Positions 14,352 to 54,367 of a stretch of 64,000 nt of DNA are shown in pieces; positions within the stretch are counted from its first letter, which is position 1; every line of letters starts with the position of its first letter. Origin of the DNA: Sediminispirochaeta sp. (GTDB taxonomy: Bacteria; Spirochaetota; Spirochaetia; B11-G9); assembly GCA_024763455.1 (NCBI GenBank), contig JANTFL010000001.1, forward strand, positions 26,678-90,677, in the 5' to 3' direction. The translations under genes were made by a program, and so were the position numbers. A model generated the notes under the pieces. That model did no database searches. It was not told the origin of the DNA and saw only the letters and a program-made list of their open reading frames with translations.

Positions 14352-14816
14352 TTACTTGATTCCTACATATAGTGTAAATAAACCGTAACTTCCGGTAAGT
14401 GACTTGTGCAGTATATACCTGGTGTCAGCAGGTTCGGAAAAAATATTTTTCCCAATAATAAGAGTAGGTGGAGTTATGTCGCAGCAATAGCCTTTTTTTT
14501 CCAGGAGCATCATACTTCTGCCGGAAATTTGGTTGAGGAGCTCACCCATAGCCTCTTTATGAAACCGGCCGAAGCCCTTTTCCCCTTCCGGATTCATTCC
14601 GAGATTAGCCAGCATCTTCTTTATAAAATTGGAGGCACTGGAGATGTCTGATTTAAGACTAAGAAACCCCTTTAGATCGCCGGTAATTCCGATGTTAGCG
14701 ACGACTTCTGTGCTATTACATGTATTTATGGTATCAGTAGGAGTAATTTCAAAGCCTGCTTGCTCAAACACAATTTTGGTTGCTTCGGTGAATAGTTCAA
14801 GATCCTCAATTCTCAT
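14352..14816 (-). CDS. cheX: chemotaxis phosphatase CheX (CheC/CheX/FliY family)
   Basis: ~154 aa. VANIGITGDLKGFLSLKSDISSASNFIKKML is the typical CheX core. Confidence 0.75.
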   Translation of the reverse strand: MRIEDLELFTEATKIVFEQAGFEITPTDTINTCNSTEVVANIGITGDLKGFLSLKSDISSASNFIKKMLANLGMNPEGEKGFGRFHKEAMGELLNQISGRSMMLLEKKGYCCDITPPTLIIGKNIFSEPADTRYILHKSLTGSYGLFTLYVGIK

Positions 14817-31268: not shown

Positions 31269-31337
31269 GTGCTTTTAGATGTGTCAATTCTCTTAATAGT
31301 AATTGTATTTTCTCACTATTGTTTGTATATTAAAAAT

Positions 31338-31853
31338 ATGTTATGCGATGTTTGCGGAAAAAGAGAAGCGGCGATACATATTCAGCAGATCATAGGAAAG
31401 AAAGTGATTGATCTGCACTTGTGCCGGCAGTGTGCCAGGGAGAAGAATGTCTCGGAAACAGAGGGGTCTGTAAACAATTCAATTATAAATTTGGTAAAGA
31501 ATCTCCTGGATGGAACTCGTTTGACACAGTTCATTGATCAAAAAACTACGTATTGCCCGACTTGTAATACAAAACTGCATGAAATCAGAGAAACCGGAAA
31601 GACGGGTTGCCCCGACTGTTACAGAGAGTTTAGAACAGTTATCCGTGAATCTCTGGGTGTGGGAAACACACCTCTTCTGCATAACGGCAACATCCCTGAA
31701 AAGCTGAAGAGCTATAAAACAATTCTGGTTGACAGAGAAAAGCTGAAAAAAGAGCTTGAAGAGGCAGTGTTTAAAGAGGATTACGAAACTGCCGTTGTAC
31801 TGCGGGATAAGCTGAAGGAACTTGAGATTGAGCTGGGAAGGGGTAATGAGTAG
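31338..31853 (+). CDS. mcsA: protein-arginine kinase activator McsA (zinc-finger + UVR domain)
   Basis: MLCDVCGKREA...CRQCAREK and CPTCNT...CPDCY are two CxxC pairs. C-terminal UVR motif EDYETAVVLRDKLKELE. Followed by mcsB and clpC. Confidence 0.7.
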   Translation: MLCDVCGKREAAIHIQQIIGKKVIDLHLCRQCAREKNVSETEGSVNNSIINLVKNLLDGTRLTQFIDQKTTYCPTCNTKLHEIRETGKTGCPDCYREFRTVIRESLGVGNTPLLHNGNIPEKLKSYKTILVDREKLKKELEEAVFKEDYETAVVLRDKLKELEIELGRGNE

Positions 31854-32901
31854 TTTTTCAGGATTTGAAACTGCTCCTCTTTGGTGCAGGAAGGAAGGAG
31901 AAGCGCGTGATGTAGTCCTATCCAGCAGGGTAAGACTGTCGAGAAACCTGGCGGGATTTACTTTTCCTGAAAAATTGACCCTAAAGGATGAGGAAGAGGT
32001 AAAGAATATTGTCCTTTCAGCGGTAGAAACAAGCAACCAGTACAAGGATATGGAAGTTCTGTACATGAACGATGTTATTCCTGTTGAAAGAATGATGCTG
32101 TTCGAGAAAAGGCTTGTTTCCAGGGATTTTTCTGAAGGCAGGAATAAAGCGGTCGTTATACGGAGTGATAAGAGTCTTTCCTGCATGGTTAATGAAACCG
32201 ACCACCTTAAGATAGCTGCGTATACCGGTGGGCTTGATCTTGAAGAGGCATTTAATGAAGCCCGGGAGTTTGACGTAGCATTGGAAAAAAATCTGGATTA
32301 TGCAGTTTCTCTGGAGTTTGGATATCTCACCAGTCAGATAAAGAATGCCGGGACCGGTATGAAAGCTTCAGTTATGCTTCACCTGCCGTTTCTTGTAAGA
32401 ACAGGGCTGTTGGATAGAGCGATTAAATCCTCACTGACGGAGGAATTCTCAGTAAAAGGCTTTTTAAGTGATGAAGAAAACTCTCTGGGAGACCTGTATC
32501 AGGTTTCAAACGAAGTATCGATAGGAATAAGCGAAGAGGCATATTTGAAAAAACTGCAGACAGTGGCATCTTCACTCATGGGGTATGAACGACGGGCACG
32601 GGACCAGTTCTACAAGAGTAAAAGCATGGAGCTGGAAGATATATTTTACCGGGCTTATGGAATCCTTAAAAACTGCAGACTTCTGTCTTTGAAGGAAGCG
32701 GTACGGTATCTTATGGATTTTAGAATTGGAATAATAATGGGTTGGTCCGATGTCCCTTTGGAACGGATTGACTATCTGATAATTCTGGTGCAGAAAGCGC
32801 ATATCCAGTCTACTCTTGACTTTGATGAGGAATCAAACTCAAAAATTATTAATTATACCCGTTCAAAGCTTGTCAAAAGATATCTTGAGTTACTACAATA
32901 G
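31846..32901 (+). CDS. mcsB: protein arginine kinase McsB (ATP:guanido phosphotransferase family)
   Basis: SSRVRLSRNLAGFTFPEKL matches the McsB signature. Phosphagen-kinase C-domain core. 8-nt overlap with mcsA. Confidence 0.75.
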   Translation: MSSFSGFETAPLWCRKEGEARDVVLSSRVRLSRNLAGFTFPEKLTLKDEEEVKNIVLSAVETSNQYKDMEVLYMNDVIPVERMMLFEKRLVSRDFSEGRNKAVVIRSDKSLSCMVNETDHLKIAAYTGGLDLEEAFNEAREFDVALEKNLDYAVSLEFGYLTSQIKNAGTGMKASVMLHLPFLVRTGLLDRAIKSSLTEEFSVKGFLSDEENSLGDLYQVSNEVSIGISEEAYLKKLQTVASSLMGYERRARDQFYKSKSMELEDIFYRAYGILKNCRLLSLKEAVRYLMDFRIGIIMGWSDVPLERIDYLIILVQKAHIQSTLDFDEESNSKIINYTRSKLVKRYLELLQ

Positions 32902-32916
32902 GAGTAGGGGGATCAT

Positions 32917-35409
32917 ATGTATAAGGGGCTAACACAACGGGCTAAATTAATAGTAACCGTATACTCACAGGAAGAGGCAAAGCGGTTCAGATCAGACCAG
33001 CTTTTACCGGAACATATACTCCTGGCAATAATAAAAGAGGGCGAAGGGACAGGTTTAAAGGTTTTGAAATCCTTAAAAATAAATCCTGTTGAACTTCAGC
33101 TGGAGATTGAGAAGGGAATTCCCAGAAAACACTCAGGATATATCCTGGGAGACGTATCACTATCCAGAAGAGGGACGCGAATTATTGAAGACTCTGCCGA
33201 AGAAGCAAAAGCTCTTGGCCATGAGTATATTGGTACAGAACATTTTATTCTTGCAGCTATTAAAGAGCAGGGGAGTATTCTTCAGCGTTTCCTCGGAAAA
33301 AACGGAGTTTCATACAGTGATTTTCGGAAGGCAGTCATTGCCATGCGGGGCGCCGGTTCAAATTCGGCAAGTAGAAATACCCGGTTTCAGGCACAAAAGA
33401 AGAATCAGCCGGTGAGCAGCAAGAAGGGAACACCTACCCTGAACGACTTCTCCAGGGATCTTACAGAGTATGCCCGCAAAGGAGCCCTTGACCCTGTCAT
33501 AGGTCGGGAACAGGAGATTAAAAGGGTTATCCAGATTCTTGCCCGGCGCACAAAAAACAATCCGGTTCTTGTAGGTGAGCCGGGAGTAGGGAAGACGGCA
33601 ATAGTCGAAGGACTGGCCCAGCGGATCGTGGACGGGACGGCACCCGATTTACTTCTTGGTAAACGGGTTTTGACCCTGGATATTGCTTCTCTCATTGCGG
33701 GAACAAAATACAGGGGAGAGTTTGAGGAACGTCTAAAGCGTGTAATGAAAGAGATCCGTAATGATGGAAACGTGATTCTTTTTATTGATGAACTGCACAC
33801 AATAATAGGAGCCGGCGGTGCTGAGGGGGCAATTGATGCGTCTAATATGTTAAAACCTGCCCTTTCCAGAGGTGAGATTCAGTGCATCGGTGCAACTACA
33901 TTAAATGAATACAGGAAATATATTGAAAAAGATTCAGCTTTGGAGAGAAGATTTCAGAGTATTTTTGTGGATGAACCTACGGTGGAGGATACAATAAAAA
34001 TACTTAACGGAATTAAAAAGCAATATGAGAATCATCATAATGTAGAATATGAAGATAAGGCAGTTACCGCAGCTGCAATGCTCTCGCACAGGTATATCTC
34101 AGACAGGTTCCTTCCTGACAAAGCAATTGATCTGCTGGATGAAGCAGGTGCAGTAAAAAGAATTAACAATACTGTACGGCCGGGCAGTATACGGAAGATG
34201 GAGGAAGAGATTGAAGAACTCACTTCAAAAAAGATTGAACTGGTCAATAATCAGGACTACGAGAGGGCAGCAGCTGTCAGAGATCAGGTTCGCCAGCTTA
34301 AGCTCGAAATGGATAAAAAACTCAATGACTGGAATAGTTCCATGAAGGTGGAAAAGGTAACAGTCTATGAAACCGATATAGATGAGATAATATCCAGTAT
34401 CACCGGGATACCAGCAGCCAGGATTGCTGAGAGTGAATCGGAAAAGCTCCTTCAGATTGAGAGTGAACTGCATAAAACAGTAATAGGACAGAATGAAGCA
34501 ATAACCGCTATTGCATCAAGTATAAGACGGTCAAGAACAGGACTTTCTTCTCCTGGAAGACCTTTGGGGTCCTTTATTTTCCTGGGACCCACAGGGGTGG
34601 GAAAGACTCTCCTTGCAAAAACCCTTGCACAGTATCTTTTTGGAAAAGAAGATGCACTTGTAAGGATAGATATGTCCGATTTTATGGAAAAACACAACAT
34701 TAGCCGGCTGGTTGGAGCACCCCCCGGGTATGTAGGATATGAAGAGGGAGGACTTCTCACCGAGAAAATTCGGAGACGACCTTACAGTGTTATCCTTCTT
34801 GATGAGATTGAAAAAGCACATCCTGACGTTTTTAATCTTCTGCTTCAGCTTCTTGAGGAAGGGGAGCTTCAGGATAATCTGGGACATAAGGTTTCTTTTA
34901 AGAATACTGTTCTTATTATGACATCCAACGCAGGAGCCAGAGAAATCTCACAGGAAAATTCTCTGGGGTTTAAATCCAACGATGGAATACTGAGTTACTC
35001 AGAGATACGGGCTTCTGCTTTAAATGAACTCCGGCTTCAATTCCGACCTGAGTTTATAAACAGAGTGGACGAGATTGTAGTCTTCAACAGCCTCACAAGA
35101 GAAGAGATAAGAAATATTGTGGATATTCTCCTTGATGAGATTAAGTTACGGCTGCTTGAGATGAATATAATCCTGGAATTGAAGAAAAGTGCCAGAGAGT
35201 ATCTGGTTGATAACGGTTATGATCCGAAGTTCGGCGCACGGCCATTACGAAGAGTCCTTCAAAAAGAGATAGAAGACCCCCTTTCCGTTCAAATACTTGA
35301 GGGGAAATGTCCTGCCGGTAGCAGGGTTACCGCAGGAGTACGTAAAGGGCATCTCTCTTTTGCGATAGATAAACCAAAACTTATAGAAGCTAAAACACCG
35401 GTTGTATAA
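32917..35409 (+). CDS. clpC: ATP-dependent Clp protease ATP-binding subunit ClpC (AAA+, two NBDs, UVR motif)
   Basis: Two Clp_N repeats. GEPGVGKT and GPTGVGKT. UVR NNQDYERAAAVRDQ. 830 aa. Confidence 0.9.
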   Translation: MYKGLTQRAKLIVTVYSQEEAKRFRSDQLLPEHILLAIIKEGEGTGLKVLKSLKINPVELQLEIEKGIPRKHSGYILGDVSLSRRGTRIIEDSAEEAKALGHEYIGTEHFILAAIKEQGSILQRFLGKNGVSYSDFRKAVIAMRGAGSNSASRNTRFQAQKKNQPVSSKKGTPTLNDFSRDLTEYARKGALDPVIGREQEIKRVIQILARRTKNNPVLVGEPGVGKTAIVEGLAQRIVDGTAPDLLLGKRVLTLDIASLIAGTKYRGEFEERLKRVMKEIRNDGNVILFIDELHTIIGAGGAEGAIDASNMLKPALSRGEIQCIGATTLNEYRKYIEKDSALERRFQSIFVDEPTVEDTIKILNGIKKQYENHHNVEYEDKAVTAAAMLSHRYISDRFLPDKAIDLLDEAGAVKRINNTVRPGSIRKMEEEIEELTSKKIELVNNQDYERAAAVRDQVRQLKLEMDKKLNDWNSSMKVEKVTVYETDIDEIISSITGIPAARIAESESEKLLQIESELHKTVIGQNEAITAIASSIRRSRTGLSSPGRPLGSFIFLGPTGVGKTLLAKTLAQYLFGKEDALVRIDMSDFMEKHNISRLVGAPPGYVGYEEGGLLTEKIRRRPYSVILLDEIEKAHPDVFNLLLQLLEEGELQDNLGHKVSFKNTVLIMTSNAGAREISQENSLGFKSNDGILSYSEIRASALNELRLQFRPEFINRVDEIVVFNSLTREEIRNIVDILLDEIKLRLLEMNIILELKKSAREYLVDNGYDPKFGARPLRRVLQKEIEDPLSVQILEGKCPAGSRVTAGVRKGHLSFAIDKPKLIEAKTPVV

Positions 35410-40104: not shown

Positions 40105-41154
40105 CTAACCGTTTTTAGTTAAGAACTCCCGGTATTTTGCCGGGTCAGGTCTAAATCCAATTATATTTGCATCTTGTTCTTTTCCAGCCCTTTTAAGTGC
40201 AGCCGAAGCTTCTGAAAACAGAACATCTCCGTCTACAAGCCGCCCGTTTCTTGAACTGATACCGTACAGGATTGTATACCGTGTAAGAATATCAATCTTT
40301 GTTGAGGTGTTTTGATCAAAATCACGAATCAGTGCTATTCCCTTTTCAATATCAGCGTTTGGAATGATTACAGCATACAAATCAGAGGCACATCTGCATA
40401 TAAGGTCGGAATAGGTAAAGGTTTCCTGCAAAAGCCTTTCAAAAGAATTCATGGCTGAAGCAGAGGTCTCGTTTGGAATGTTTACCAAAGCCAGGACCAT
40501 ATCCTGATCGAATGATGCCGAACGTTTCAGTTCATTAGAAATCTTTGAGATAAATTCATATCTCATCCCTGATCTGTCTTTCTCAGCTTTTCGATCTTTT
40601 GAGTAGTGAGCTGCTTTAGAGATATCTTTCGAGTCCCTGCTGGATATAAGAATAATAAATGCGATAATGATAAATACCAGGGATGCTGCAATTGCATATT
40701 TTAGAAGAGATGCAAACTGATTAATCTGAAGTACCGTAAATACGGTTTTTATTTGATAAATCCTGCCTCGGTAGGGTTTGAACGTTGAAAGAGACGTATC
40801 CCTGATAGTGTCAACCACCTGCGTAAACGTCTCTGCTGTAGTGGATACCGCAGTTGCATTCCTGGCAAATACATAGAGGGATGATCCCTTATCATCAGAG
40901 ATTATCAGGGATTTTAACGAAGGGGAAGAAAGTGCCAGGTTTGAAAGTTTGACAAAGTTAGAAGTTTTTGATGAAGCACTGGTTTTGCTAAAGAGATCAT
41001 CAATAACAGTTTCCGAGATTGAATCAAACATAGTCTTTGCCTTCAAAGTATTCAGATGAAGATTAAAACCCATACTCAAAACAAGGTACAGAACGAGAAT
41101 TGTTATAAAAACAACACCGAAAACGTTAAAATATAATAATTTATTATCCTTCAT
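40105..41154 (-). CDS. membrane protein with two TM helices flanking a periplasmic region and a C-terminal degenerate GGDEF-like domain
   Basis: TM1 LLYFNVFGVVFITILVLYLVL. TM2 YAIAASLVFIIIAFIILI. The C-terminus follows the GGDEF fold pattern, but the RYGGEEF site reads RCASDLY. Confidence 0.45.
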   Translation of the reverse strand: MKDNKLLYFNVFGVVFITILVLYLVLSMGFNLHLNTLKAKTMFDSISETVIDDLFSKTSASSKTSNFVKLSNLALSSPSLKSLIISDDKGSSLYVFARNATAVSTTAETFTQVVDTIRDTSLSTFKPYRGRIYQIKTVFTVLQINQFASLLKYAIAASLVFIIIAFIILISSRDSKDISKAAHYSKDRKAEKDRSGMRYEFISKISNELKRSASFDQDMVLALVNIPNETSASAMNSFERLLQETFTYSDLICRCASDLYAVIIPNADIEKGIALIRDFDQNTSTKIDILTRYTILYGISSRNGRLVDGDVLFSEASAALKRAGKEQDANIIGFRPDPAKYREFLTKNG

Positions 41155-41233: not shown

Positions 41234-42067
41234 ATGAAACTTTACGAAAAAAGAGACAGGTCACTACCTTCAGGCTGGTATCCTGATACAGAAGAAGGGG
41301 TGCGGAAAATTTTAATAAACTGGGAGGAGCGCTACGGGAAAAGAGAAGAGGGCTGTATCTCGGGAATAGTCCCCCATGCTGGATGGTTTTTTTCAGGGTA
41401 TATTGCTTTCTCTGTAATGAGTAACCTCTCTCCAGATGCGGATACGATTGTGATTGCAGGCGGTCATTTGCCTGGCGGAGTATCACCAATGCTCTTCAAC
41501 TATAAGGTAATGGAAACACCTATCGGTCCTTTGGAGACAGATTTAACCTTCCTTGAGGAGCTTTCAGGGCGAATTACATTTTACGAAGGTACAGAAGCAG
41601 ACAACACTGTTGAAATCCAGCTGCCTATTGTCAAGTATCTTTTCCCTGGGAGTAAGGTCGTAGCTTTAAGGGTTGGTGCAGGCAGCGATGCAATTGAACT
41701 AGGCGGGGAAATTGCAGCCGTTTCAAGAAAGCTGGGTAAAAAGACTGTTGTTGTTGGATCAACTGATCTCACCCATTACGGACCTTCATACGGATTTACC
41801 CCCCATGGGACCGGTAATTCAGCCCTCCGCTGGGTTAAAGAAGTAAATGACAAGAAAATAGTAAATGCTTTTTTATCAATGGAAGAAGAAAAAGTTCTGG
41901 AGTACGGGAACAGGAACAAGGCGGCATGCTCATCCGGCGCTGCTGCGAGTGCTATAGCATTTGCCCGTCACTTTGGCAGGTCACAAGGGGAGCTTATTTC
42001 ATACATGACCAGTAATGATGTCTATCCATCAGACTCCTTTGTCGGTTATGCCGGAGTAGTGTACTAA
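41234..42067 (+). CDS. MEMO1-family protein (AmmeMemoRadiSam system protein B)
   Basis: GIVPHAGWFFSG, IVIAGGHLPG, GSTDLTHYGP match the Memo signatures. Confidence 0.65.
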   Translation: MKLYEKRDRSLPSGWYPDTEEGVRKILINWEERYGKREEGCISGIVPHAGWFFSGYIAFSVMSNLSPDADTIVIAGGHLPGGVSPMLFNYKVMETPIGPLETDLTFLEELSGRITFYEGTEADNTVEIQLPIVKYLFPGSKVVALRVGAGSDAIELGGEIAAVSRKLGKKTVVVGSTDLTHYGPSYGFTPHGTGNSALRWVKEVNDKKIVNAFLSMEEEKVLEYGNRNKAACSSGAAASAIAFARHFGRSQGELISYMTSNDVYPSDSFVGYAGVVY

Positions 42068-43746
42068 GATGCAATTACCTTCGCTACTGTTTCAATTGTC
42101 CAGTCAAGAGTTTTTCTAAGAATCTCCATCCCTCCTGTATCAGGGGAACACACTCTCCTGATTGCAGCTGCTGCGGGGAAAAGAGTGATGCAAACCTCTT
42201 TTTGTCTTGAGGTAAGAGAGTGCATATATCCGGATAAAGACTCTGCCGGTACTGGAAGAGATTTAAGATCCTGGTAGTACGAGTAAAGAAAATGATTCCA
42301 TGAGAGATCAGCTGGCCCTGCGGAAAATATACTTGATATTCCGTATGATTCGGGTATTTTTTGATATGCAGGGATTTCTATCATTTCACCTTCCCCTTCA
42401 GGAATGATTACTTCGGATTTGAGACTGCTGATCAGTTTTTCAAGTCTTTTTTTATAACTAATCATTGGTTTCGTCACATACCGTGAGCTTCTCGTATCAG
42501 TTACATGGTTAGTCTCATCGTTGTGAAAAATAAAATCAATAAAAAAATCTTCAAGAGGTTGTGTTCTGTGTGTCAGAGCGCTGAAATATGGATATAAATA
42601 GGTACCTCTGGCATAACTCTTGCCGTAGGGATAAGAGAAGTCAACCCCGAAAAGCAAAATTTTTTTTGCCCCCAGAGAGTAGGCAAGGGATACTGCGGCA
42701 TGGCTGACATTTCCGCCTGAAGTATCAATAAAAGGGAATTCCCTCCATCTTTTTTTTACATACAATGAGAACGGGTGACCGCTGGTAAAAAAAAGAACAT
42801 TGTCTGTAAGCCGGGTTATGAGCTGAGGCGATGCAAGATCAAGAACAAGAGGGATATCATTGGGGATTCCAGTCATAAAGTGATGAAACGTAATATGCTG
42901 GCAGTCGATAGATAATATCAGGTCAGGTTTAATCCCATTTTGTATAAGAGCGGGATAAGCGGTGTCTGTTGTAATCAGAAATCCATCTTTTGAATGCTCC
43001 TTTAATTGTGGCAGCTGCTTTTCTAACGACGGACCGGCTCCGGCTATGAGTGCTTTATTAACAGGAGAAATAACAGTAGTAGTTTTTTCTGCCGCCTTCA
43101 GGTTAAGAAGTGTGTTCACAAACCACCTTTTGCCGAAGTAAGATTGTACTGAAAAATCCTCTGAAAGCGGTGTTATTACATCATTGATTGTTTTTGTAAC
43201 ACTGGAAAAAAATTCGTTTTCCATTTCAACTCTTGCTCTGAGTTTAAGAATATCAAGGTTTCCTGATATGGCAGGGATATAGTTTTCAAGAATATGACTG
43301 GATATATCCTCTGGTGAGGGATCAATAAGTATGCGTACTCTTTTATCAAGAAAAAGTGAGGTGAGATTAAAATGAGTGAGTATTTTCTTGAAAAAGCCAT
43401 AATCCTTGTCAATTACAAGAATCTCAGATATTTGTTTATCTTCAGTAAAGGGTAGTATATGATAACCGGCACCAAAACCGAGGATAATTATGTAACCACT
43501 TGCTTTAAACGTAGAATAAAACCTCTTCCCTTCTTTCTCCGGATCAAAGGTTGAATGAAGAGGGACTTCTCTATCGTTTTTTTTCAAAAACGGAACCCGC
43601 ATTCCTGTTCTGCTTTCTTTTATCAGGTACTGATCAGATTCATCAACATAGCTTATCTTGGAGGCAAGACTGGAATTCGTCGCCGAAAGTGCAAGAAGAT
43701 TGGATTCAAGAAACGACTGATTACTCTGTTTCTGCATTATGTTCAA
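42064..43746 (-). CDS. Maf-family (motility accessory factor; DUF115/MptE-like) protein, paralog 2
   Basis: ALIAGAGPSL, ILSIDCQ, GGNVSHAAVSLAYSLGAKKILLFGVDFSYPYGKSYARGT is the classic Maf core. Confidence 0.75.
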   Translation of the reverse strand: MNIMQKQSNQSFLESNLLALSATNSSLASKISYVDESDQYLIKESRTGMRVPFLKKNDREVPLHSTFDPEKEGKRFYSTFKASGYIIILGFGAGYHILPFTEDKQISEILVIDKDYGFFKKILTHFNLTSLFLDKRVRILIDPSPEDISSHILENYIPAISGNLDILKLRARVEMENEFFSSVTKTINDVITPLSEDFSVQSYFGKRWFVNTLLNLKAAEKTTTVISPVNKALIAGAGPSLEKQLPQLKEHSKDGFLITTDTAYPALIQNGIKPDLILSIDCQHITFHHFMTGIPNDIPLVLDLASPQLITRLTDNVLFFTSGHPFSLYVKKRWREFPFIDTSGGNVSHAAVSLAYSLGAKKILLFGVDFSYPYGKSYARGTYLYPYFSALTHRTQPLEDFFIDFIFHNDETNHVTDTRSSRYVTKPMISYKKRLEKLISSLKSEVIIPEGEGEMIEIPAYQKIPESYGISSIFSAGPADLSWNHFLYSYYQDLKSLPVPAESLSGYMHSLTSRQKEVCITLFPAAAAIRRVCSPDTGGMEILRKTLDWTIETVAKVIAS

Positions 43747-45253
43747 AAGTTCCCCTTACTATTTCTTCGGCTGTTGTAATTATCGGATAAAGATCATCTA
43801 CAGTGCAGCTTTCGCCTGAAGAAAGTTTTTTTACACAGATAATAATTTCCTGGAGTGAAAATAGATAGAATAAACCGGTTAAAGATTCATCTCTGGTAAG
43901 AAAGCGGACTAAGTCCTGAAAACCAGTTATCTCAGGGATCTCCCTCTTTACGATTTGAAGTTTTTTTATGATTGCATGAAGGGAAGAATCAATGAGATCA
44001 AAAGATTTCGGTTTTGCTACTGAAGAAAAAAAGAATTCAGTGGAATCGGCACGTATATTCCCGGTTACTAATTGAATGATTTCACTACCCTTTACTGAGT
44101 GGAAAAAATTTAATGTGGAAGACGATGGATTAACCCTGTAAATATTGTTACTGATACGGACATTATTAAACCAGTTAGCATAGGTTTGGTAAGCTCTATT
44201 GCTCCCCTGATGCTGTGAATCAATCTTGTGTGAATACAATATGTCAAGATATGGGTGAACCCTGGATTCTCGGCATTTAAAATAATTATCAAAAGTATGG
44301 GGGCTTACATGGCTGTGGACATCATTGAATGCAAGATCCAGTCCAGCTACAAATACTGAGGGACTGCCAAGTTTTAACGAGAGTACTAGAGCTGTAGCTG
44401 CAACAGTGCCGGTTTCAAAGAGTTTTACTGAGGGGATCGAAATAAATGAAGACACCCATTTTTCCAATTCAGAGTTCTGGTTAATCAGGAGAACAGGTCC
44501 ATCAACTTTGAGGTGGGTTGCAGTCAAAGGCATGGCAAATGGAATTCCCCGAATAAAATCCTGCCTGAAATGAAATCGATTCCAGAAACCGGGATCAGTA
44601 TTTACAATTAAATCAGGATAAATCGAATAGTATTCAAGTGCATGAAGCGATGAAGGAAGTGCTGTTATAAAAAAAAGTTCCCGATGCTCTTTTATCAGCG
44701 GTAACATCTTGGAAAGAGACGGTCCTGCGGCAGTAATAAGAACAGGCTTTGAAATTTTAAATGAATCCGGGTTTATAAACGTATTGATGTATTTTAGATT
44801 TAGGTATAAATTTCGAATCCATTTTCTACTGAAGTTAACTGTTGTAACTACAGAGCCGTTTCTTTCTTCCATGAATGAAAAAATAGTATCAGCTACCAAT
44901 TGATGGATCTCTGGGAAAGCTTTTGAACACGGTTTCCAAACAATCAACCGGAGAACCGGAATCATGAAATCGGGTATTGAAGAGCCCAAAAAACTTTTCA
45001 ATGAAGTATTTGAACCGACGTACCATGAAAGTTTTTTATCCTTGGCTTTGTCATAAAAAATCTTGTTGTAATATACAGAAACAACTAAGGAACCAGGATA
45101 CCTATCCATCAGATACTTTTTCAGATATTCCCCTCCCGGCCCGGTCAGGAGAAATAGATAACATCCCTTTTTAATATTTAAAGAATCCACATACCGTGAG
45201 GCTGCACGCTCAGGCGCATAAGGTGAATGAATGGTAATACCGTTGTATTTCAA
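43721..45253 (-). CDS. Maf-family (motility accessory factor; DUF115/MptE-like) protein, paralog 3
   Basis: VLITAAGPSL...IVNTDPG...GTVAATALVLSLKLGSPSVFVAGLDLAF. 26-nt overlap with paralog 2. Confidence 0.7.
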   Translation of the reverse strand: MKYNGITIHSPYAPERAASRYVDSLNIKKGCYLFLLTGPGGEYLKKYLMDRYPGSLVVSVYYNKIFYDKAKDKKLSWYVGSNTSLKSFLGSSIPDFMIPVLRLIVWKPCSKAFPEIHQLVADTIFSFMEERNGSVVTTVNFSRKWIRNLYLNLKYINTFINPDSFKISKPVLITAAGPSLSKMLPLIKEHRELFFITALPSSLHALEYYSIYPDLIVNTDPGFWNRFHFRQDFIRGIPFAMPLTATHLKVDGPVLLINQNSELEKWVSSFISIPSVKLFETGTVAATALVLSLKLGSPSVFVAGLDLAFNDVHSHVSPHTFDNYFKCRESRVHPYLDILYSHKIDSQHQGSNRAYQTYANWFNNVRISNNIYRVNPSSSTLNFFHSVKGSEIIQLVTGNIRADSTEFFFSSVAKPKSFDLIDSSLHAIIKKLQIVKREIPEITGFQDLVRFLTRDESLTGLFYLFSLQEIIICVKKLSSGESCTVDDLYPIITTAEEIVRGTFEHNAETE

Positions 45254-45265
45254 AGAGGTATTCCT

Positions 45266-46186
45266 CTAAAGGATATCCAGCTTGGAAAGAAGCAAATCCA
45301 CATCTCTGCCCTGTTCAGGATACAAGATATAGGAATGTTTTATAACCGGAAGATCAGTCTGAATATTAAAATAATTTTTTAAGGTTAATTCAATTTGAGT
45401 TGTTAGAATCTGCGGTTTTTTCATAGTATGTGATGAAAAGAGCAGCAAGGATGTATAAAGATCAATCTGTAATAATCTGCCGGATATATTAACCATAGAG
45501 TAGATTGTGTCAAAAATATCCTGGGATATCTGTTTATCTTCCTGGCTTTCAGATCCGGACTCAGAAATAATGGAAATAAGCTCTTCAAAGTTGAGTTTAA
45601 TAAGGAAAATAACAGAATCCCTATGTTTTGAAAGGTACCGTGATACGAAAGGAATTATTGATGAATCAGCGGACACTGCAGTTTTTTTACTGCTTTCAAT
45701 TTTGGATAGCTTTTCAAGAATAAGTCTTAGAGTTTTTATTGCTTCATCAACAGCTCGTGGTTTTTGAATCATCGGTGAATTGATACCCAGAAATGCAGTA
45801 TCTTGATGCTTCATAAAAGTGATGTTCTTCAGTCCTGTGAATTCGCGTATTGAAAGCAGCGGTTTAAAATTCTGCAGATCCTCAGGTGAAGTAAGTATGT
45901 TAAACCCTTCTGTTTTGAAGATGGAACTTAAAAATTTATTGTTAAATCTAACTCTTCGGCTGGAGGTTATATCAATACCGGTTTGGGCTGCCGGTAACCA
46001 AAGATCTTCTTTGGGGTTATAAGAAAGAAACAAAGCTTTTTTAAGACCAACAAAATCACAAAAAAGGTTTAATGACTTTAAAGGATATGATTCATCAGTG
46101 GATAAATCTCTTTCACTACGAACAAAATCTTCGTAGCTTTTTTTTTTAGAATCTTTTGTATCTAAAACAGTGTTTAGTAAACCCAT
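45266..46186 (-). CDS. hypothetical protein (306 aa) co-operonic with Maf genes; A10 tract at codons 12-15
   Basis: ORF 12 nt upstream of maf paralog 3 and 4 nt downstream of the acidic repeat gene. No recognisable domain. Confidence 0.5.
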   Translation of the reverse strand: MGLLNTVLDTKDSKKKSYEDFVRSERDLSTDESYPLKSLNLFCDFVGLKKALFLSYNPKEDLWLPAAQTGIDITSSRRVRFNNKFLSSIFKTEGFNILTSPEDLQNFKPLLSIREFTGLKNITFMKHQDTAFLGINSPMIQKPRAVDEAIKTLRLILEKLSKIESSKKTAVSADSSIIPFVSRYLSKHRDSVIFLIKLNFEELISIISESGSESQEDKQISQDIFDTIYSMVNISGRLLQIDLYTSLLLFSSHTMKKPQILTTQIELTLKNYFNIQTDLPVIKHSYILYPEQGRDVDLLLSKLDIL

Positions 46187-46190
46187 CTAC

Positions 46191-48401
46191 CTAATGAAGC
46201 CCCAACTCATCAAAAAGTTTTTTATAAACTGAAAAGTACTCGGAGTTTGCAAACTCTTCTATCTTCTCCTCTGGGAGGGACTCGAGCAGCTGATCCATAT
46301 ACGATAGAACTGAAATAACCTCAGATTGCAGATGAGATGGAATCGGTTCTTCTCCAGGAGCATTGTCTGCTATTTCAGTATCCTCTGTTATTTCTTCAGG
46401 AATTTCGATTTCCTCAGGTGCCTCAACAGAATCAGACAATAAATCATCATCCTGGAGTTCCGGTATCTCGATATCAATAGCAGTACTTTCCATAGGTTCA
46501 GAAGGTTCTTTAGGGGGAAGAATATCAAATTCCTCATCAAGATCATTAAGCTCCGGCAGGTCTTCTACAAACTGTTCTTCACTTACTTCTGGAACTTCTT
46601 CAACACGTGCTGCCTCTTCCGGAATCTCAAGATCGGTAAGGTCGGAATCCAGAGAAAGTTCTTCTTCCTCCGGCATCTCCAGGTCGGTAAGGTCAGAATC
46701 CAGAGAAAGTTCTTCTTCCTCCGGCATCTCCAGGTCGGTAAGGTCGGAATCGAGAGAAAGTTCTTCTTCTGGGATCTCAAGATCAGTAAGGTCGGAATCA
46801 AGAGAAAGTTCTTCTTCCGGGATTTCAAGATTCGGCAGATCTGAATCCAGGGATAACTCAGCCGGTTCTTCCTCTTCCTCGATATCAATAAGTTCCGGAG
46901 TTTCGTCGGCTGCCTCATCAAGTACTTCCAGATCGATCAGATCTTCATCTTCAGCGTCCAAATTTAGTTCCGAAACGTCATCAAGCTCAAGGTTTTCGAG
47001 TTCCAGGTCAGGTTCGTCTGTAAAATCTACATCTTCGGAAACTACAGCTTCCGGTATCTCCTCTGCTTCATCGAGTTCGAGTTCTTCAACTTCCGGAATT
47101 TCTTCTTCCATGGAAAGTTCATCCAGTATATCTGGCTGATCAATTAAATCCAGATCTTCTGCTTTGGTTAGTTCCTCGTCCATGGAAAGTTCTTCAGAAT
47201 CTTCAAGAGATTCAGTTTCTACAGCCAGTTCCTCTGTTATATCAGCCGTATTAAGGATATTATCGAGTTCATCCCCTGTTAGAGCAATAGTTTCGTCATC
47301 ATCCTCATTAAAGAAATCACTCGTCTCCTCAGCTGTTTCATCCGTTTGAGAAGCGGTAACCGGAACTGTTTCAGTTGTTTTTAGAGTAGATAACTCCTCT
47401 TTCATTGTAAGAATTTCATTCTTTATGGTAAGGAGTTCGTTTTCAATCTTTTTTAATACTTCAGAAGCCGATTCAACGGATACTTCAGATGCCGTATAAG
47501 AGGGGATGTCACTTTCAACGATATCCTCCTCCTCACCAGTTGTAAGATCTTCAATGATACTTTCAGTTTCATCGAAGTCAACAGAGAAGTCATCAGGGGC
47601 TCCATCACCGGCTTCTTCATCTTCGGAGATTTCAAGGTCAGGGAGTTCTTCAATAGCAAGTTCTTCAGCTCCAGAGATCTCTTCGGCGTTGCCGGGAAGA
47701 GCAGCCTCTTCTTCTCCTTCTTCGTTAAGGAGGATATCATCATCTTCAAGAAAGCTGTCAACATCAAGGTCTTCAAAATCTTCATCGAGGCCGGAACTGA
47801 GTAGATCATCTTCATCAAGATCAAGATCAAGATCATCAACTGAATCTGTCTCAGGGTTAACGGAACTTATACTCTCAGTTTCACGTTCCGGTTCTGTGAC
47901 AGCCTCGATATCTTCTATATCCTCAAGCTCAAGGTCTTCCAGTTCACTGTCCAGGTCATCAAGATCAGCCAATTCTACATCTTCAAGTTCCAGATCATCC
48001 TCTTCCATAGTCTCCATTTCCGGTTCATCTCCTATGCCAGCAGTTTCAGTCTCTTTGGTATTTTCAGGAGACTCATCAAAAGTCTCTGAAGATTCTATAT
48101 CAAGAGGCATGTCAAAAGATTCGTCTTCTTCAAGATCGAAGTCAAGATCATCCAGTTCGTCAATCTCGTCATCGATTTCTTCTGTAACAAGTTCCTTTTC
48201 AAGTTCTCCCAGAAGATTTTCTTCTTCCTCTGTAATTGCACTCTCAGTAGTATCCTGAATATCATGAAGAGAGAAATCTTCTCCTGTATTTAAAGTGTCT
48301 TCGGTTTCAATCTCTTCCGGACCTGCTTTTACCCATACTCCGTACTGTTCAAGCTCTTTTTCTTTTTTTATGTCATCATTCCCGTTTGACACCATTTCCA
48401 T
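46191..48401 (-). CDS. hyper-acidic low-complexity repeat protein (736 aa, about 40% D+E) with conserved-looking termini
   Basis: N-terminus MEMVSNGNDDIKKEKELEQYGVWVKAGPEE. Five tandem copies of ELSLDSDL(T/P)(D/N)LE(I/M)PEE(E). C-terminus VISVLSYMDQLLESLPEEKIEEFANSEYFSVYKKLFDELGLH. Confidence 0.6.
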   Translation of the reverse strand: MEMVSNGNDDIKKEKELEQYGVWVKAGPEEIETEDTLNTGEDFSLHDIQDTTESAITEEEENLLGELEKELVTEEIDDEIDELDDLDFDLEEDESFDMPLDIESSETFDESPENTKETETAGIGDEPEMETMEEDDLELEDVELADLDDLDSELEDLELEDIEDIEAVTEPERETESISSVNPETDSVDDLDLDLDEDDLLSSGLDEDFEDLDVDSFLEDDDILLNEEGEEEAALPGNAEEISGAEELAIEELPDLEISEDEEAGDGAPDDFSVDFDETESIIEDLTTGEEEDIVESDIPSYTASEVSVESASEVLKKIENELLTIKNEILTMKEELSTLKTTETVPVTASQTDETAEETSDFFNEDDDETIALTGDELDNILNTADITEELAVETESLEDSEELSMDEELTKAEDLDLIDQPDILDELSMEEEIPEVEELELDEAEEIPEAVVSEDVDFTDEPDLELENLELDDVSELNLDAEDEDLIDLEVLDEAADETPELIDIEEEEEPAELSLDSDLPNLEIPEEELSLDSDLTDLEIPEEELSLDSDLTDLEMPEEEELSLDSDLTDLEMPEEEELSLDSDLTDLEIPEEAARVEEVPEVSEEQFVEDLPELNDLDEEFDILPPKEPSEPMESTAIDIEIPELQDDDLLSDSVEAPEEIEIPEEITEDTEIADNAPGEEPIPSHLQSEVISVLSYMDQLLESLPEEKIEEFANSEYFSVYKKLFDELGLH
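46612..46865. repeat. five tandem 51/54-bp repeats (unit approx. GGTAAGGTCGGAATCCAGAGAAAGTTCTTCTTCCTCCGGCATCTCCAGGTC) inside the acidic protein gene
   Basis: Direct near-identical repeats visible in the sequence at 46621-46860. They encode the 17-18 aa acidic peptide repeat. Confidence 0.8.
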
Positions 48402-48593
48402 CTCCTGATATTTAGTTCACTTTTACAAATATCGGCAAATAAATTTAAAGTATGACTTATTTATCAGTTTCAATACTATTAATTACAAGTTATCAGAATT
48501 ATAGAGAAATAACAATCAAAATCTAAAAAATATTGAGCCCTTTTCTCTTTCCCGGCTCAAGATTAAGACCTGAATTTCCGTAAAAAAGAACAT

Positions 48594-49067
48594 ATGAAGC
48601 TCATTCACCGTTTACTGATAAGTTTATACACCGCATTTATAGTATTTACCTGGTTATCCTTCTTTGTGGGTCCAAATGGACTGGCAGAAAGCCGCCAGCT
48701 GGAACAATACAAGGAGAAGCTTGTAAAAGGGAATCTCGAAATGGAGAAGATAAACCAGAAGCTTGACAATGAATTTAGAAGACTTGAAAGTGACCCTGAT
48801 AGAATTGCCCTGGAAGCAAGAAGCCTTGGATACTATCGTGATAATGAGGGGATATTCCTTTTGGAAGGATATCATGTAAACCGTAAGGGCTATTCGGTAG
48901 GATCACTTTTCAGAGAATATTCGGGTAAAACTTCAAGTATAGCGGCAATCAGGCTGACAGCAGTATCGCTGGGTGTTGTTGTGTTCTTTTTTCTGACCAT
49001 ATTTTCGAGGAACAAAAATGATTATACTATCCGCAGAAGACGATATTCGGAAGCACGTTATAATTAA
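48594..49067 (+). CDS. septum formation initiator family protein (FtsB/DivIC-like)
   Basis: N-terminal TM. Coiled coil LEQYKEKLVKGNLEMEKINQKLDNEFRRLESDPDRIALEARSLGYYRDNE is typical of FtsB. Confidence 0.6.
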   Translation: MKLIHRLLISLYTAFIVFTWLSFFVGPNGLAESRQLEQYKEKLVKGNLEMEKINQKLDNEFRRLESDPDRIALEARSLGYYRDNEGIFLLEGYHVNRKGYSVGSLFREYSGKTSSIAAIRLTAVSLGVVVFFFLTIFSRNKNDYTIRRRRYSEARYN

Positions 49068-49584
49068 AACACTGAAAGAAAACGGAATTGTTATTATGCC
49101 CTGCGATACCATATACGGTTTTGTTGGTGCTGTCCCTGATACGGGAGAAAAAATCGCATCAATCAAGGGGAGGGAAGAGGGGAAAAAGTTTCTTCAGCTT
49201 ATTCTTCCATCATGGCTCGGCAACTTTACCGATATGAAAATAGAAGAGGAGCTTCTTAAGGTGAGTCCCGGCTGTATTACCTTTATTATTAAAAACCGGA
49301 CAGGAGATACTACAGCAGTCAGGTTCCCTGAAGATCCCTTCCTTGCTGATATTATTGATGGTGTTGGCAGACCGTTGTACTCAACCAGTGTAAACAGGAG
49401 CGGAGCACAGATCCTGTTCCGCCCCGTTGAAATGATTGAGGAATTCGGCAACGAAATAGATGTTCTGCTTGATGCCGGTGAAATTCCCGGTAAAAAACCA
49501 TCCACCATACTCGATGTTACTGCGAGACCTTACAGAATACTAAGACAGGGTGCAGGTGCTGTTCCGGAAAAGTACCTTACCTGA
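49018..49584 (+). CDS. tsaC: L-threonylcarbamoyladenylate synthase TsaC/YrdC
   Basis: YrdC domain: IVIMPCDTIYGFVG...ITFIIKNRTGD...STSVNRSGAQ. Confidence 0.75.
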   Translation: MIILSAEDDIRKHVIIKTLKENGIVIMPCDTIYGFVGAVPDTGEKIASIKGREEGKKFLQLILPSWLGNFTDMKIEEELLKVSPGCITFIIKNRTGDTTAVRFPEDPFLADIIDGVGRPLYSTSVNRSGAQILFRPVEMIEEFGNEIDVLLDAGEIPGKKPSTILDVTARPYRILRQGAGAVPEKYLT

Positions 49585-51993: not shown

Positions 51994-52622
51994 CGGGGAT
52001 AATCTTTACAGGAGGGGAAGGTCCGGAAAAGAGATTTATTGAAAACGAGATAAAGGCAGGAGACTACATAATAGCAGCCGATTCCGGACTGGATAGAGCC
52101 CTTTTATGCGGATATTCACCGGATCTTGTCGTAGGGGATCTGGATTCTGTAAAAAACAAAACTTTTTTAGATGACATTCCTGCTGACTGTGTTAAGATAT
52201 TCCCTGAAGATAAAGATGAAACGGATACAGAAATCGCCTTGAGAATTATGAAAGAGATAAAGGTTGATCGGGTAATCCTCGCAGGCGGGGGAGGGGGACG
52301 TCTCGACCATCTTCTGGGCATTGTATCCATCTTCGACCGTTCATATTATCCTGATGTTTGGTATACCGCAATGGAGAAGATTGTACCTGTCAGCAGCAGG
52401 GATGAGTTTTACGGAATGCTGGGTAAAACGGTTTCACTGTTTCCCGCCGGTAAGGAACCCTGCAGGATAAAAAGCACCGGTTTGAAGTGGAATCTTGATA
52501 CAGTGCAATGGAGTAAAGGTGATGCAGGGATCAGTAACATTGTTGTTGAAGATCCTTTTACAATAACCATGGTAACCGGAAAAGTACTGCTGATAAGTTT
52601 TTTGAAGGAGTTTGGCGAATGA
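51990..52622 (+). CDS. thiN: thiamine pyrophosphokinase
   Basis: IIFTGGEG, AADSGLD, VVGDLDS, ILAGGGGGRLDHLLG. Confidence 0.8.
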   Translation: MTGIIFTGGEGPEKRFIENEIKAGDYIIAADSGLDRALLCGYSPDLVVGDLDSVKNKTFLDDIPADCVKIFPEDKDETDTEIALRIMKEIKVDRVILAGGGGGRLDHLLGIVSIFDRSYYPDVWYTAMEKIVPVSSRDEFYGMLGKTVSLFPAGKEPCRIKSTGLKWNLDTVQWSKGDAGISNIVVEDPFTITMVTGKVLLISFLKEFGE

Positions 52623-54367
52623 CGAAAAAAGATGTGGTATTCCACGATCTTTCAAAGGGGCTTACGCAAAATGAAAGGGATGAATTTCTTAAAAAAATAA
52701 AATACAGTCTCAGTTTAGATAATGAAGAAAGTGGGCTTCATCAGGAGGAAATGGACAAGGATGAACGGCTTGCTCTGATTAAAAAAGAGAAGAATGAAAT
52801 ATCCATGTTATGGAGGTTTTTTCTCTGGATACAGTCAAAATTTACCGGGAAGAGTGTTGAAGAGCTGCTCCTTGCTGGAAAACTCCTTCGAATAAAAAAG
52901 AAAATAAAGAAAAAGCACTCCGGGCTTACAGGGTTTGAGACCAGAAATCTTACTCCTCATTTTGCAGAAATGGTGTACGATCTCTATAAATCCACGGTAC
53001 CGGTAAGGACCCTTTTTAAAAGGATTTGGCTGGACGAAAAAGCTCTTAATACATTTTTTATGGATATAGTAGAGGAAGCGGTCGGGGAAAGAATTCTCGA
53101 TCTTGAGGATGTAGCAAGTTTTGATTCCATAATTGGTGCTTTCGGAGAAGCGGGAAAAAAAGATGATGTTAAGAGACTGATCATAGAAAAACTTGATGCT
53201 TACCTTGAATCGCTTAACAGTAATATCTTTAAACAGCTGGAAATCGATCTGCTTCCCATATACAGGCTGAGAGATCTTGTTCTATTCCCCTATGTTCAGT
53301 TTTTTCAGCAATTTGGCTATACCCTCCTTGATACTCCCTATACGGAAAATCCCCAATTTAAAAATGCCTCCGCCATACTCTGTCTGAATGATCTCGAAAA
53401 ACTGAATTTTGCTGTGTATTCTGCTACAAAACTGGAAAGAAGAGTCAATTTTAACTCCAGAATGCTGGACCGCCTTGGAGTTGTCGCGGGGAATGAACCT
53501 GATGAAAATGTTGAGCATTTTTCTTCTGATATGGAATTAGTCATTCAAAAAGCAAAATGGTTTTCTGATAAGATTCCTCTTTCTGATCTCATACGGTACT
53601 TTAAGAAGAATCCTTTTATAAAAATGATCTTTTATATTCCTGAAGTTAATCTAAGAACCTTTTACAGGACCAGCTTGACTGTAAGGATGATAACCCGGAT
53701 TGATGAACGACTTGCAGAAATACAGGAAAAGTATATCGCCCATGAAATAGAGTCGCTTTTTGCCGGAAAGCATTATGTGAAATTTCAAAACTACCGGGAA
53801 TATTCATCAATAGATTACGAGAAACTTGGAGTTTCCTCCTTCAGGAATATGGAGCCATTGTCCCTGATATATAACTTTATCGAGTGCTACTACAGAGGTA
53901 ATGTAATACAATCGATAGTCAGGGTCCTTGAAAAAGGTGTACTGGCGCAGAACAGACTTATGAGGGATAATATGCTGCAGTACGCTTCTGTTATCGAAGA
54001 TGTAGCAGAAAGGATTCGGGTTTTTGATGATTCCCTTTCCCCTGATTCTGAGGAAGGTAAGGTTTTTCACAAACTCAGATTTTCCATGACCAAGGATATT
54101 TCTCAGCAAAAGGTTTTTAGAAAAATTGTTATCCAAAAAGACCGGGAAGCAAGAAATTTATGCGAAGCAGGTATGGATGCTCTGACAGGGTTAAAAAGAG
54201 TGTTGGGTGAGATAAACCGGAGTACGAATGATGCCGTTACCGAGCAGTTAAAACAACACTATCTTATTAACAACAAACCTGTTGTGCTGCAGGATCTGCT
54301 CACTGGTTCTCTGGAGAATCTGAATAAGGTTGAACACCTCTATCATCACATGCTTACAACCGTATAG
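52619..54367 (+). CDS. hypothetical protein (582 aa), coupled to thiN (ATGA)
   Basis: Long ORF with no recognisable domain. Cytoplasmic-looking. Confidence 0.5.
   Translation: MTKKDVVFHDLSKGLTQNERDEFLKKIKYSLSLDNEESGLHQEEMDKDERLALIKKEKNEISMLWRFFLWIQSKFTGKSVEELLLAGKLLRIKKKIKKKHSGLTGFETRNLTPHFAEMVYDLYKSTVPVRTLFKRIWLDEKALNTFFMDIVEEAVGERILDLEDVASFDSIIGAFGEAGKKDDVKRLIIEKLDAYLESLNSNIFKQLEIDLLPIYRLRDLVLFPYVQFFQQFGYTLLDTPYTENPQFKNASAILCLNDLEKLNFAVYSATKLERRVNFNSRMLDRLGVVAGNEPDENVEHFSSDMELVIQKAKWFSDKIPLSDLIRYFKKNPFIKMIFYIPEVNLRTFYRTSLTVRMITRIDERLAEIQEKYIAHEIESLFAGKHYVKFQNYREYSSIDYEKLGVSSFRNMEPLSLIYNFIECYYRGNVIQSIVRVLEKGVLAQNRLMRDNMLQYASVIEDVAERIRVFDDSLSPDSEEGKVFHKLRFSMTKDISQQKVFRKIVIQKDREARNLCEAGMDALTGLKRVLGEINRSTNDAVTEQLKQHYLINNKPVVLQDLLTGSLENLNKVEHLYHHMLTTV

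Follow-up and report, generated by a model that had tools for sequence, protein, structure and literature searches.

A 64,000-nucleotide (nt) stretch of contig JANTFL010000001.1 from Sediminispirochaeta sp., referred to below as the window, contains four closely packed genes on the minus strand that encode two Maf-type proteins, a protein of 306 amino acids (aa) and a hyper-acidic protein. A preliminary description of the window had interpreted these genes as a putative locus for flagellin/motility modification. The analysis reported here supported this interpretation and amended it by the addition of a fifth conserved gene, by the recognition of the 306-aa product as a pseudoenzyme with GAF and GGDEF-fold domains and by the placement of the acidic product, through its relatives, in Pfam family PF27359. 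The coordinates and strand of the four open reading frames (ORFs) were reproduced exactly from the ORF list of the window, as were the junctions between them, namely two gaps, of 4 and 12 nt, and one overlap of 26 nt. The main features of the locus are the following.

48429-48455, minus strand: putative sigma-28 (FliA)-type promoter, seen as a conserved motif
46191-48401, minus strand: hyper-acidic protein of the PF27359 'TP_0179' family, 736 aa as annotated
45266-46186, minus strand: 306-aa GAF/pseudo-GGDEF protein, from its predicted fold
43721-45253, minus strand: MafB, 510 aa, PF01973
42064-43746, minus strand: MafA, 560 aa, PF01973 and a near-threshold Maf_flag10_N domain
40105-41154, minus strand: fifth conserved gene, for a membrane pseudo-GGDEF protein, from weak GGDEF matches and conservation

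The two Maf sequences were searched with hidden Markov models, a check that had been proposed beforehand. MafA matched PF01973 (MptE-like / MAF_flag10) with a score of 119 bits (E 2.5e-34) and MafB with a score of 79.7 bits (E 3e-22), both far above the gathering score of 34.6 bits. MafA also gave a near-threshold score of 22.5 bits against PF20157 (Maf_flag10_N; gathering score 23.5), and the precomputed PF20157 matches of its orthologues were labelled 'weak' or 'faint'. The sole NCBIfam match for MafA and MafB was the flagellin modification protein PseD (NF050051). Alignment of MafA with the Maf structure from Magnetospirillum magneticum (5mu5; E 3.1e-06) placed D281 and D369 at the positions of the catalytic residues E324 and D415. 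These two residues are reported to be critical for activity, and mutagenesis confirmed the role of their equivalents in the Maf proteins of Clostridium and Geobacillus (bioRxiv 10.1101/2020.06.03.131540).

An alignment of the MafA and MafB orthologues from eight loci with a third paralog from the window revealed that the MafA and MafB lineages have each retained the two acidic positions and the glycine-rich xGPSL motif. In MafB the positions are occupied by the aspartates of the TDPG and GLDL motifs, which are kept in all orthologues. The preliminary description had assigned an AGPSL motif and an ARGT motif to both proteins; the first of these was confirmed as xGPSL, while ARGT is found only in MafA and the third paralog, MafB carrying GLDLAFNDVHSHVSPHT instead. 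MafA and MafB are 18% identical to one another compared to 21–47% for each against its own orthologues, indicating that they are ancient, separately conserved paralogs. MafA is predicted to be a Maf-type glycosyltransferase, and MafB is predicted to be a divergent Maf/MptE-like glycosyltransferase paralog. The third paralog, which had been alluded to earlier without a position, lies at 28049-29707 on the minus strand. It encodes a protein of 552 aa that matched PF01973 with 105 bits and is approximately 20% identical to MafA and MafB, and it is located directly downstream of a SurA-like peptidyl-prolyl isomerase gene (29721-31268).

The conservation of the gene set was examined in 11 distinct readable loci besides the window (L001/2, L003/4, L005, L006, L007, L008, L009/10, L011, L013, L014, L015 and L016, of which L003 and L006 form a nearly identical pair; L017, a 1-kb contig, was uninformative). 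The genomes of Borrelia, Leptospira, Brachyspira, Treponema pallidum and T. denticola lie outside this locus set. Borrelia lacks sigma-28 and is not known to have a nonulosonic-acid pathway. In all 11 loci the order was divIC (divergent), the acidic gene, a 306-like gene, a gene for an MptE-like protein of about 500 aa and a gene for an MptE-like protein of about 550 aa. The synteny of the acidic and 306-aa genes with both maf genes, which had been suggested as a test, was thus found in 11 of the 11 loci. The same block was reached independently by searches from the 306-aa protein and from the C-terminus of the acidic protein, and it was kept down to approximately 20% identity of the 306-aa protein. 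The junctions ranged from -23 to +12 nt across the loci, with the exception of a single 208-nt gap in L009.

One of these loci (L011) belongs to T. saccharophilum or a close relative, and another (L015) is the complete 3.78-Mb chromosome CP006939.1, which is probably that of Salinispira pacifica. The outer flanks varied in L008, L009, L011, L013 and L015 with the block remaining intact: the upstream flank contained PFK, M20 and GT2 genes in L008 and L013 and genes for SmpB, an S26 peptidase and TP_0183_C in L011, and in L009 DUF4914 and ApbA genes were inserted. The wider neighbourhood was also largely conserved among the closer relatives. Wherever a locus reached far enough, divIC and the acidic gene were divergently oriented, and the divIC/ftsB-like gene followed by tsaC formed the invariant divergent neighbours of the operon across all loci. 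The genes that adjoin the operon in the window are listed below.

48594-49067, plus strand: divIC/ftsB-like gene (PF04977, 49 bits)
48594-49584, plus strand: divIC-tsaC pair, with tsaC (Sua5/YciO/YrdC) after the divIC/ftsB-like gene
41234-42067, plus strand: gene for Memo / AmmeMemoRadiSam system protein B (TIGR04336, 175 bits)

A link to motility had been drawn previously from the flagellar rod genes and cheX elsewhere in the window. The FlgF/FlgG-like rod genes (28-1688) and cheX (14352-14816) are approximately 40 kb and 27 kb from the operon, amid housekeeping genes, which makes their proximity weak evidence for such a link. This part of the argument is replaced by a sequence motif at the head of the operon. 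The acidic gene is preceded by a divergent intergenic region of 192 nt that contains TCAT-N15-GCCGATAT, with the -10 box at 48429-48436, located 27 nt before the ATG at 48401 and 33 nt before the ATG at 48395. The hexamer CCGATA was present on the coding strand within the -90 to -20 interval in nine of ten independent loci, the tenth locus having TCGATA. Against a measured CCGATA background of 1.4% per 60 nt, the binomial P is approximately 1e-15. When the loci were anchored on the box an A was invariant at -18 and a T was frequent at -20, and the consensus was T[CA]A[AT]-N15-(G)CCGATA(A/T), positioned 27–58 nt before the acidic gene start in nine of the ten loci. The regions before the 306-like gene, mafB, mafA, the fifth gene and divIC did not show a conserved box, each having it in zero to two of the ten loci. 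The motif at the operon head matches the sigma-28 promoter of T. denticola flaB2 as mapped by rapid amplification of cDNA ends, which has a -35 element of TTAA and a -10 element of CCGATAA (PMC9481697). It also has the general layout of flagellar class III promoters of the sigma-28 (FliA) type, in which a TAAA-like -35 element is followed by a 15-nt spacer and a -10 (G)CCGATAA. The retention of an intergenic hexamer at a fixed position despite a protein identity of 20–40% is hard to explain other than as a promoter, and the head of the operon looks like a sigma-28 (FliA)-type promoter by this motif.

The full motif has two occurrences in the 64-kb window, the other copy being inside tsaC (49210-49235, plus strand). 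Two further candidate promoters were rejected. A CCGATAA sequence 33 nt before mafA was either unconserved in the orthologues or without a -35-like element, and a CCGATAA sequence 68 nt before the third maf gene, inside the isomerase gene, had no -35-like element. The GCCGATAT box is also found at 20457-20464 (plus strand), inside ftsH and 61 nt upstream of an ORF for a 626-aa tetratricopeptide repeat (TPR)-like protein that starts at 20525, and at 63390-63397 (plus strand), close to the end of the window, where no listed ORF follows. A generic scan for sigma-70 promoters and terminators gave no excess over shuffled controls, and an Rfam scan of the region from 39.5 to 49.5 kb gave no riboswitch or other known RNA. 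The window contains a 289-aa sigma-70-family factor (2113-2982, plus strand), just after the flagellar rod genes. This factor was considered as a FliA candidate and rejected, its best scores being RpoS/RpoD-like and all of its matches falling under the equivalog cut-offs.

The 306-aa protein matched no Pfam or NCBIfam family. A word-index search gave 14 relatives, and an exhaustive profile search extended this to 141 cluster representatives (E <= 1e-3), of which 45 reached E <= 1e-10. The named sources of this family are all Spirochaetota, the protein names are all 'hypothetical' and no Pfam domains were found among the relatives. The AlphaFold2 model, with a predicted local distance difference test (pLDDT) score of 77.6, consists of two alpha/beta domains bridged by a long helix: a GAF domain at approximately residues 18–135, the helix at 143–168 and a GGDEF-fold domain at 177–302. 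Full-length Foldseek matches of the model include the GAF-GGDEF cyclase Dcsbis (4zmu) and PelD from Pseudomonas aeruginosa (4etz). The first domain is a member of the GAF fold. The second is not a GGDEF diguanylate cyclase, with the hairpin reading L-Y in place of any GGDEF motif, and the RxxD inhibitory site (I-site) is found nowhere in the family, indicating that the 306-aa protein is a pseudo-cyclase. It is probably a sensor or adaptor. Residues D72, T74, R78, R80, S112, R114 and E115 are invariant or near-invariant across 45 diverse members and are all in the GAF domain, suggesting that a ligand or partner site may be located there. PelD is membrane-anchored and binds cyclic di-guanosine monophosphate (c-di-GMP) at an RxxD I-site, which in receptors of this type is placed five residues ahead of the degenerate GGDEF. 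In comparison with PelD and Dcsbis the 306-aa protein is soluble, has neither RxxD nor GGDEF and has its conserved polar residues in the GAF domain; the fold match to PelD provides a precedent for regulators that combine a GAF domain with a degenerate GGDEF domain.

The fifth gene was present in all loci. Its product combines two hydrophobic segments with a degenerate GGDEF-like domain at the C-terminus, where ASDLY replaces GGDEF, and it gave weak GGDEF matches with Pfam as well as with TIGR00254 (E 5.9e-4). Most loci share the conserved motifs ELKRAASFDQDL, SSRNGRL and FRPDPxKYR, and a BLASTP comparison with the counterpart from the T. saccharophilum-like locus gave an E value of 3e-08. In that locus and in L015 the fifth gene (product of 400–559 aa) directly follows mafA on the same strand and the Memo gene is absent, while in the window and most other loci the convergent Memo/AmmeMemoRadiSam-B gene lies between mafA and the fifth gene, overlapping the mafA stop by 4 nt in the window. 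Only one of 11 sequences of the fifth-gene family contained RxxD. The idea that either pseudo-GGDEF protein is a c-di-GMP receptor of the PelD type was rejected, since RxxD motifs are not conserved in the 306-aa family or the fifth-gene family.

The 736-aa product was confirmed to be hyper-acidic, with an Asp+Glu (D+E) content of 39.8%, a Lys+Arg content of 2.4% and a net charge of -275. Its homologues from nine loci are 510–1047 aa in length and contain 35–41% D+E, and no transmembrane or hydrophobic segment was found in any of them, the maximum 19-residue hydropathy being below 1.2 in all. The protein is mostly disordered and cytoplasmic. A 51-bp tandem repeat of 4.8 copies at 46615-46850 encodes the 17-aa unit EELSLDSDLTDLE[IM]PE; most copies are missing from an 80%-identical relative (L005), giving a copy number that varies between close relatives. 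The annotated start (ATG 48401) abuts an AGGAG ribosome-binding site, from which the second ATG, at 48395, is spaced by 6 nt. This second ATG agrees with the MVS... start of the homologues and is probably the true start, which would give a product of 734 aa. BLASTP between the acidic proteins fails under composition correction, and their homology rests on four short, near-invariant modules, each found in at least seven of nine loci.

Residues 17–25, near the N-terminus: LEQYGVWVK
Second module: LTEEEExLL
Residues approximately 305–342: coiled coil, followed by DETIALTGDELDNIL at residues 369–383
Residues approximately 689–733: C-terminal module, YMDQLLESLPEEKIxEFAxSExFxxYKKLF

The C-terminal module was predicted by AlphaFold2 to be a three-helix unit (pLDDT 83–90), for which no relative was found in the PDB by sequence or by fold. 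Weak matches to FliG and IFT172 (E 0.007–0.4) were dismissed as chance. A profile of the module retrieved 107 proteins, and all 107 carry the precomputed label PF27359.1, as do the positional orthologues in L007, L011, L013 and L015, which are labelled PF27359 'TP_0179'. The assignment of the acidic protein to this family is thus indirect, made through the precomputed labels of homologues and positional orthologues and not through a direct model match, and the protein is placed there as a predicted member that has both the C-terminal and the N-terminal modules of the family. The protein had no match in NCBIfam or in the Pfam set that was scanned; the latter does not include the PF27359 model, which accounts for the empty scan. 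An 80-aa protein (P0265) on a 1-kb contig (L012, 277-519) combines PF27497 'TP_0747_N' with the PF27359 C-terminal module, which suggests that the three-helix module may occur in other protein contexts. FimV and HubP are hyper-acidic repeat proteins that act as polar organisers, and the acidic protein is like them in being very acidic, repeat-containing and largely disordered with a small conserved C-terminal module. It is not a member of this group, as a LysM domain, a transmembrane segment and the TPR-like motif of the FimV C-terminus are all missing from it, and the resemblance is compositional only.

The spirochaete proteins have the central PF01973/MAF_flag10 domain and the two essential acidic residues in common with the Maf transferases of Campylobacter, Helicobacter, Aeromonas, Magnetospirillum (5mu5), Clostridium botulinum and Geobacillus. 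They are also alike in length (500–600 aa), in their flanking domains and in the occurrence of several paralogs per genome. One difference is that the spirochaete operon lies outside any flagellin glycosylation island, with no pse/leg/neu or flagellin genes nearby. Another is the low identity to characterised Mafs, the PseD model being matched over the core only. The tandem spirochaete paralogs are only 18% identical to one another, and MafB is without ARGT and without an N-domain signal. In the GlfM-Maf-2 system of Shewanella oneidensis and Kurthia, a Maf without a TPR flagellin-binding domain needs a cis-encoded non-enzymatic partner for acceptor recognition (bioRxiv 10.1101/2023.12.03.569772). 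Both this system and the spirochaete operon have Mafs without a TPR flagellin-binding domain, two Mafs per organism and conserved partner genes beside maf, and the two Shewanella Mafs differ in site preference. GlfM has 89 residues that form a four-helix bundle, and its gene lies downstream of maf-2, while the spirochaete partners are the 306-aa GAF/pseudo-GGDEF protein, an acidic protein of 510–1047 aa encoded upstream and a membrane pseudo-GGDEF protein. No GlfM-like ORF of approximately 90 aa was found after mafA: the mafA stop overlaps the Memo gene in the window, and the next gene in L011 and L015 encodes the membrane protein of 400–559 aa.

The earlier claim that the locus is undescribed stands within the literature searched, in which no paper was found on spirochaete maf genes or their partners. 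The literature names TP0179 of T. pallidum just as a hypothetical protein, one segment of which is recombinant and under positive selection (PMC8789261), and PF27359 is catalogued without a function, its linkage to maf genes and to a sigma-28-type promoter being reported in no paper found. Both partners can now be assigned, the acidic protein to PF27359 and the 306-aa protein to a GAF and GGDEF-fold architecture.

The FlaB proteins of T. denticola carry O-linked nonulosonic-acid derivatives at 4–5 Ser/Thr residues each, and the assembly of filaments requires this modification (PMC13439194), so that a transferase of this type must exist in spirochaetes. Maf proteins are the known flagellin nonulosonate transferases (bioRxiv 10.1101/2020.06.03.131540). 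Among candidates for the machinery of flagellin glycosylation in spirochaetes the operon ranks first, and it is considered fairly probable that it is a Maf operon of the flagellar regulon acting on flagellin. In the proposed mechanism the sigma-28-type promoter would drive a single transcript for the acidic protein, the GAF/pseudo-GGDEF protein, MafB and MafA. Acting in the cytoplasm, prior to export, MafA and MafB would then transfer a CMP-activated nonulosonic acid, supplied by genes elsewhere in the genome, to Ser/Thr residues of the FlaB core flagellins. The two Mafs may serve different sites or different FlaB paralogs, like Maf-1 and Maf-2 in Shewanella. The three accessory proteins would replace the TPR domains or the GlfM of other Maf systems: the GAF/pseudo-GGDEF protein, for which PelD offers a structural precedent, could act as an adaptor or activator gated by a ligand, the pseudo-GGDEF protein of the membrane could tether the complex near the flagellar export gate, and the acidic protein could be a scaffold with its four conserved modules as docking sites. 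A more elaborate form of this proposal is that the five proteins make up a new, spirochaete-specific type of Maf machine, in which the ligand-sensing adaptor, membrane partner and scaffold assemble the two Mafs at the flagellar export site. A small-molecule signal would then gate flagellin glycosylation, which would be tied both spatially and temporally to assembly of the periplasmic flagellum. The invariant divIC neighbour raises the possibility that this site is the division site or new pole. This extended form is considered rather unlikely.

A number of observations weigh against a flagellin-modifying operon. No flagellin gene and no pse/leg/neu-type gene was found within 8–10 kb of the block in any locus. 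Neither kind was found among the scanned window ORFs of at least 150 aa, so that the absence of pse/leg/neu-type genes that had been recorded earlier held for these ORFs (three ORFs of this size that were not scanned are antisense shadows inside scanned genes). The constant neighbour divIC is a cell-division gene, and no fliA was found in the window, the promoter itself being a motif identified in the sequence. MafB matched neither the Maf N-domain (PF20157) nor any PDB sequence. The matches to PseD (NF050051) did not amount to full-length membership, with scores of 70.5, 33.2 and 27 bits against a cut-off of 670 and coverage of the central domain only. With no conserved RxxD I-site in either pseudo-GGDEF protein, a link to c-di-GMP is unsupported. 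In the T. saccharophilum-like locus the 306-aa position is filled by a 307-aa gene (L011, 9237-10160) with no significant similarity to the 306-aa family (hhalign probability 15%), which is either extremely diverged or a non-homologous replacement. Finally, the roles proposed for the three accessory proteins are guesses, held with a confidence far below that of the core proposal.

The absence of an adjacent flagellin gene from every locus would also suit an operon of the flagellar regulon whose Maf pair modifies an acceptor other than FlaB, for example a different protein of the flagellum or periplasm, or else the acidic protein, which is rich in Ser/Thr, with the accessory proteins defining the acceptor. 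The acidic protein contains 9–19% Ser+Thr and is always co-encoded with the Maf pair, the third Maf paralog in the window could be the flagellin enzyme, and in Helicobacter glycosylation is reported to extend beyond flagellins (PMC3184161). All experimentally characterised Mafs act on flagellin, however, MafA has the near-threshold Maf N-terminal domain and the operon promoter is of the same type as that of flaB2. There is, moreover, no obvious reason to attach acidic sugars to a protein of which D+E already makes up 40%. An acceptor other than FlaB is regarded as unlikely.

The constancy of divIC, which is as regular a neighbour as the maf genes, could instead mean that the block reflects inherited synteny only and that the acidic and 306-aa genes have a separate role, such as cell division or pole organisation together with divIC. 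Acidic repeat proteins of the FimV/HubP type are polar organisers, fragments of the acidic family are labelled 'FimV' in some sources, and the closer relatives have much of the wider neighbourhood in common. Simple inheritance does not account well for outer flanks that change in L008, L013, L009, L011 and L015 around an intact block, or for junctions of 0–12 nt or overlaps in nearly all loci, which imply co-transcription and often translational coupling. The sole conserved promoter motif is before the acidic gene, with none before the maf genes, and the acidic protein is without the LysM domain, transmembrane segment and C-terminal domain of FimV. This explanation is judged to be improbable. 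A function of the PF01973 proteins as MptE-like pyrophosphokinases or catalytically dead regulators was also considered, as PF01973 covers the archaeal 6-hydroxymethylpterin diphosphokinase MptE and MafA gave a weak match to an MptE structure (8sd5, E 0.011). The Maf structure 5mu5 was the better match (E 3.1e-06), MafA and MafB are 510–560 aa long with flanking domains compared to 241 aa for the matched MptE chain, every orthologue retains the two catalytic acidic residues of Maf and the only NCBIfam match is the flagellin modification protein PseD, which leaves the MptE-like function highly improbable.

Other features of the window lie outside the operon. Two DUF5312 paralogs are located at 5189-6892 and 52619-54367, both on the plus strand, with scores of 374 and 104 bits, and the second of these is also found near the operon block in the related loci L003 and L004. 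A trio of mcsA-like (UVR motif), mcsB-like (ATP:guanido phosphotransferase) and clpC-like genes at 31224-35409 (plus strand) corresponds to a protein-arginine-kinase quality-control module.

Maf enzymes are themselves of a known kind. The set of partners, the conservation of the operon in Spirochaetota and the sigma-28-type promoter were not described in the literature searched, in which the transferase and helpers of spirochaete flagellin glycosylation were likewise not identified. The operon supplies concrete candidates for both in the two Mafs, the two pseudo-GGDEF proteins and the TP_0179-family protein. The flagellins of T. pallidum have been reported to be glycosylated, and the reduced genome of this agent of syphilis also has a member of the family, judging from the Pfam name and from conserved neighbours. 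If the proposal is correct, the use of dedicated partners for Maf specificity, for which GlfM is the precedent, would extend to a structurally unrelated and more elaborate set of proteins. It would also provide the first functional context for two orphan families, PF27359 and the 306-aa GAF/pseudo-GGDEF family, the latter having 141 cluster representatives and no Pfam entry.

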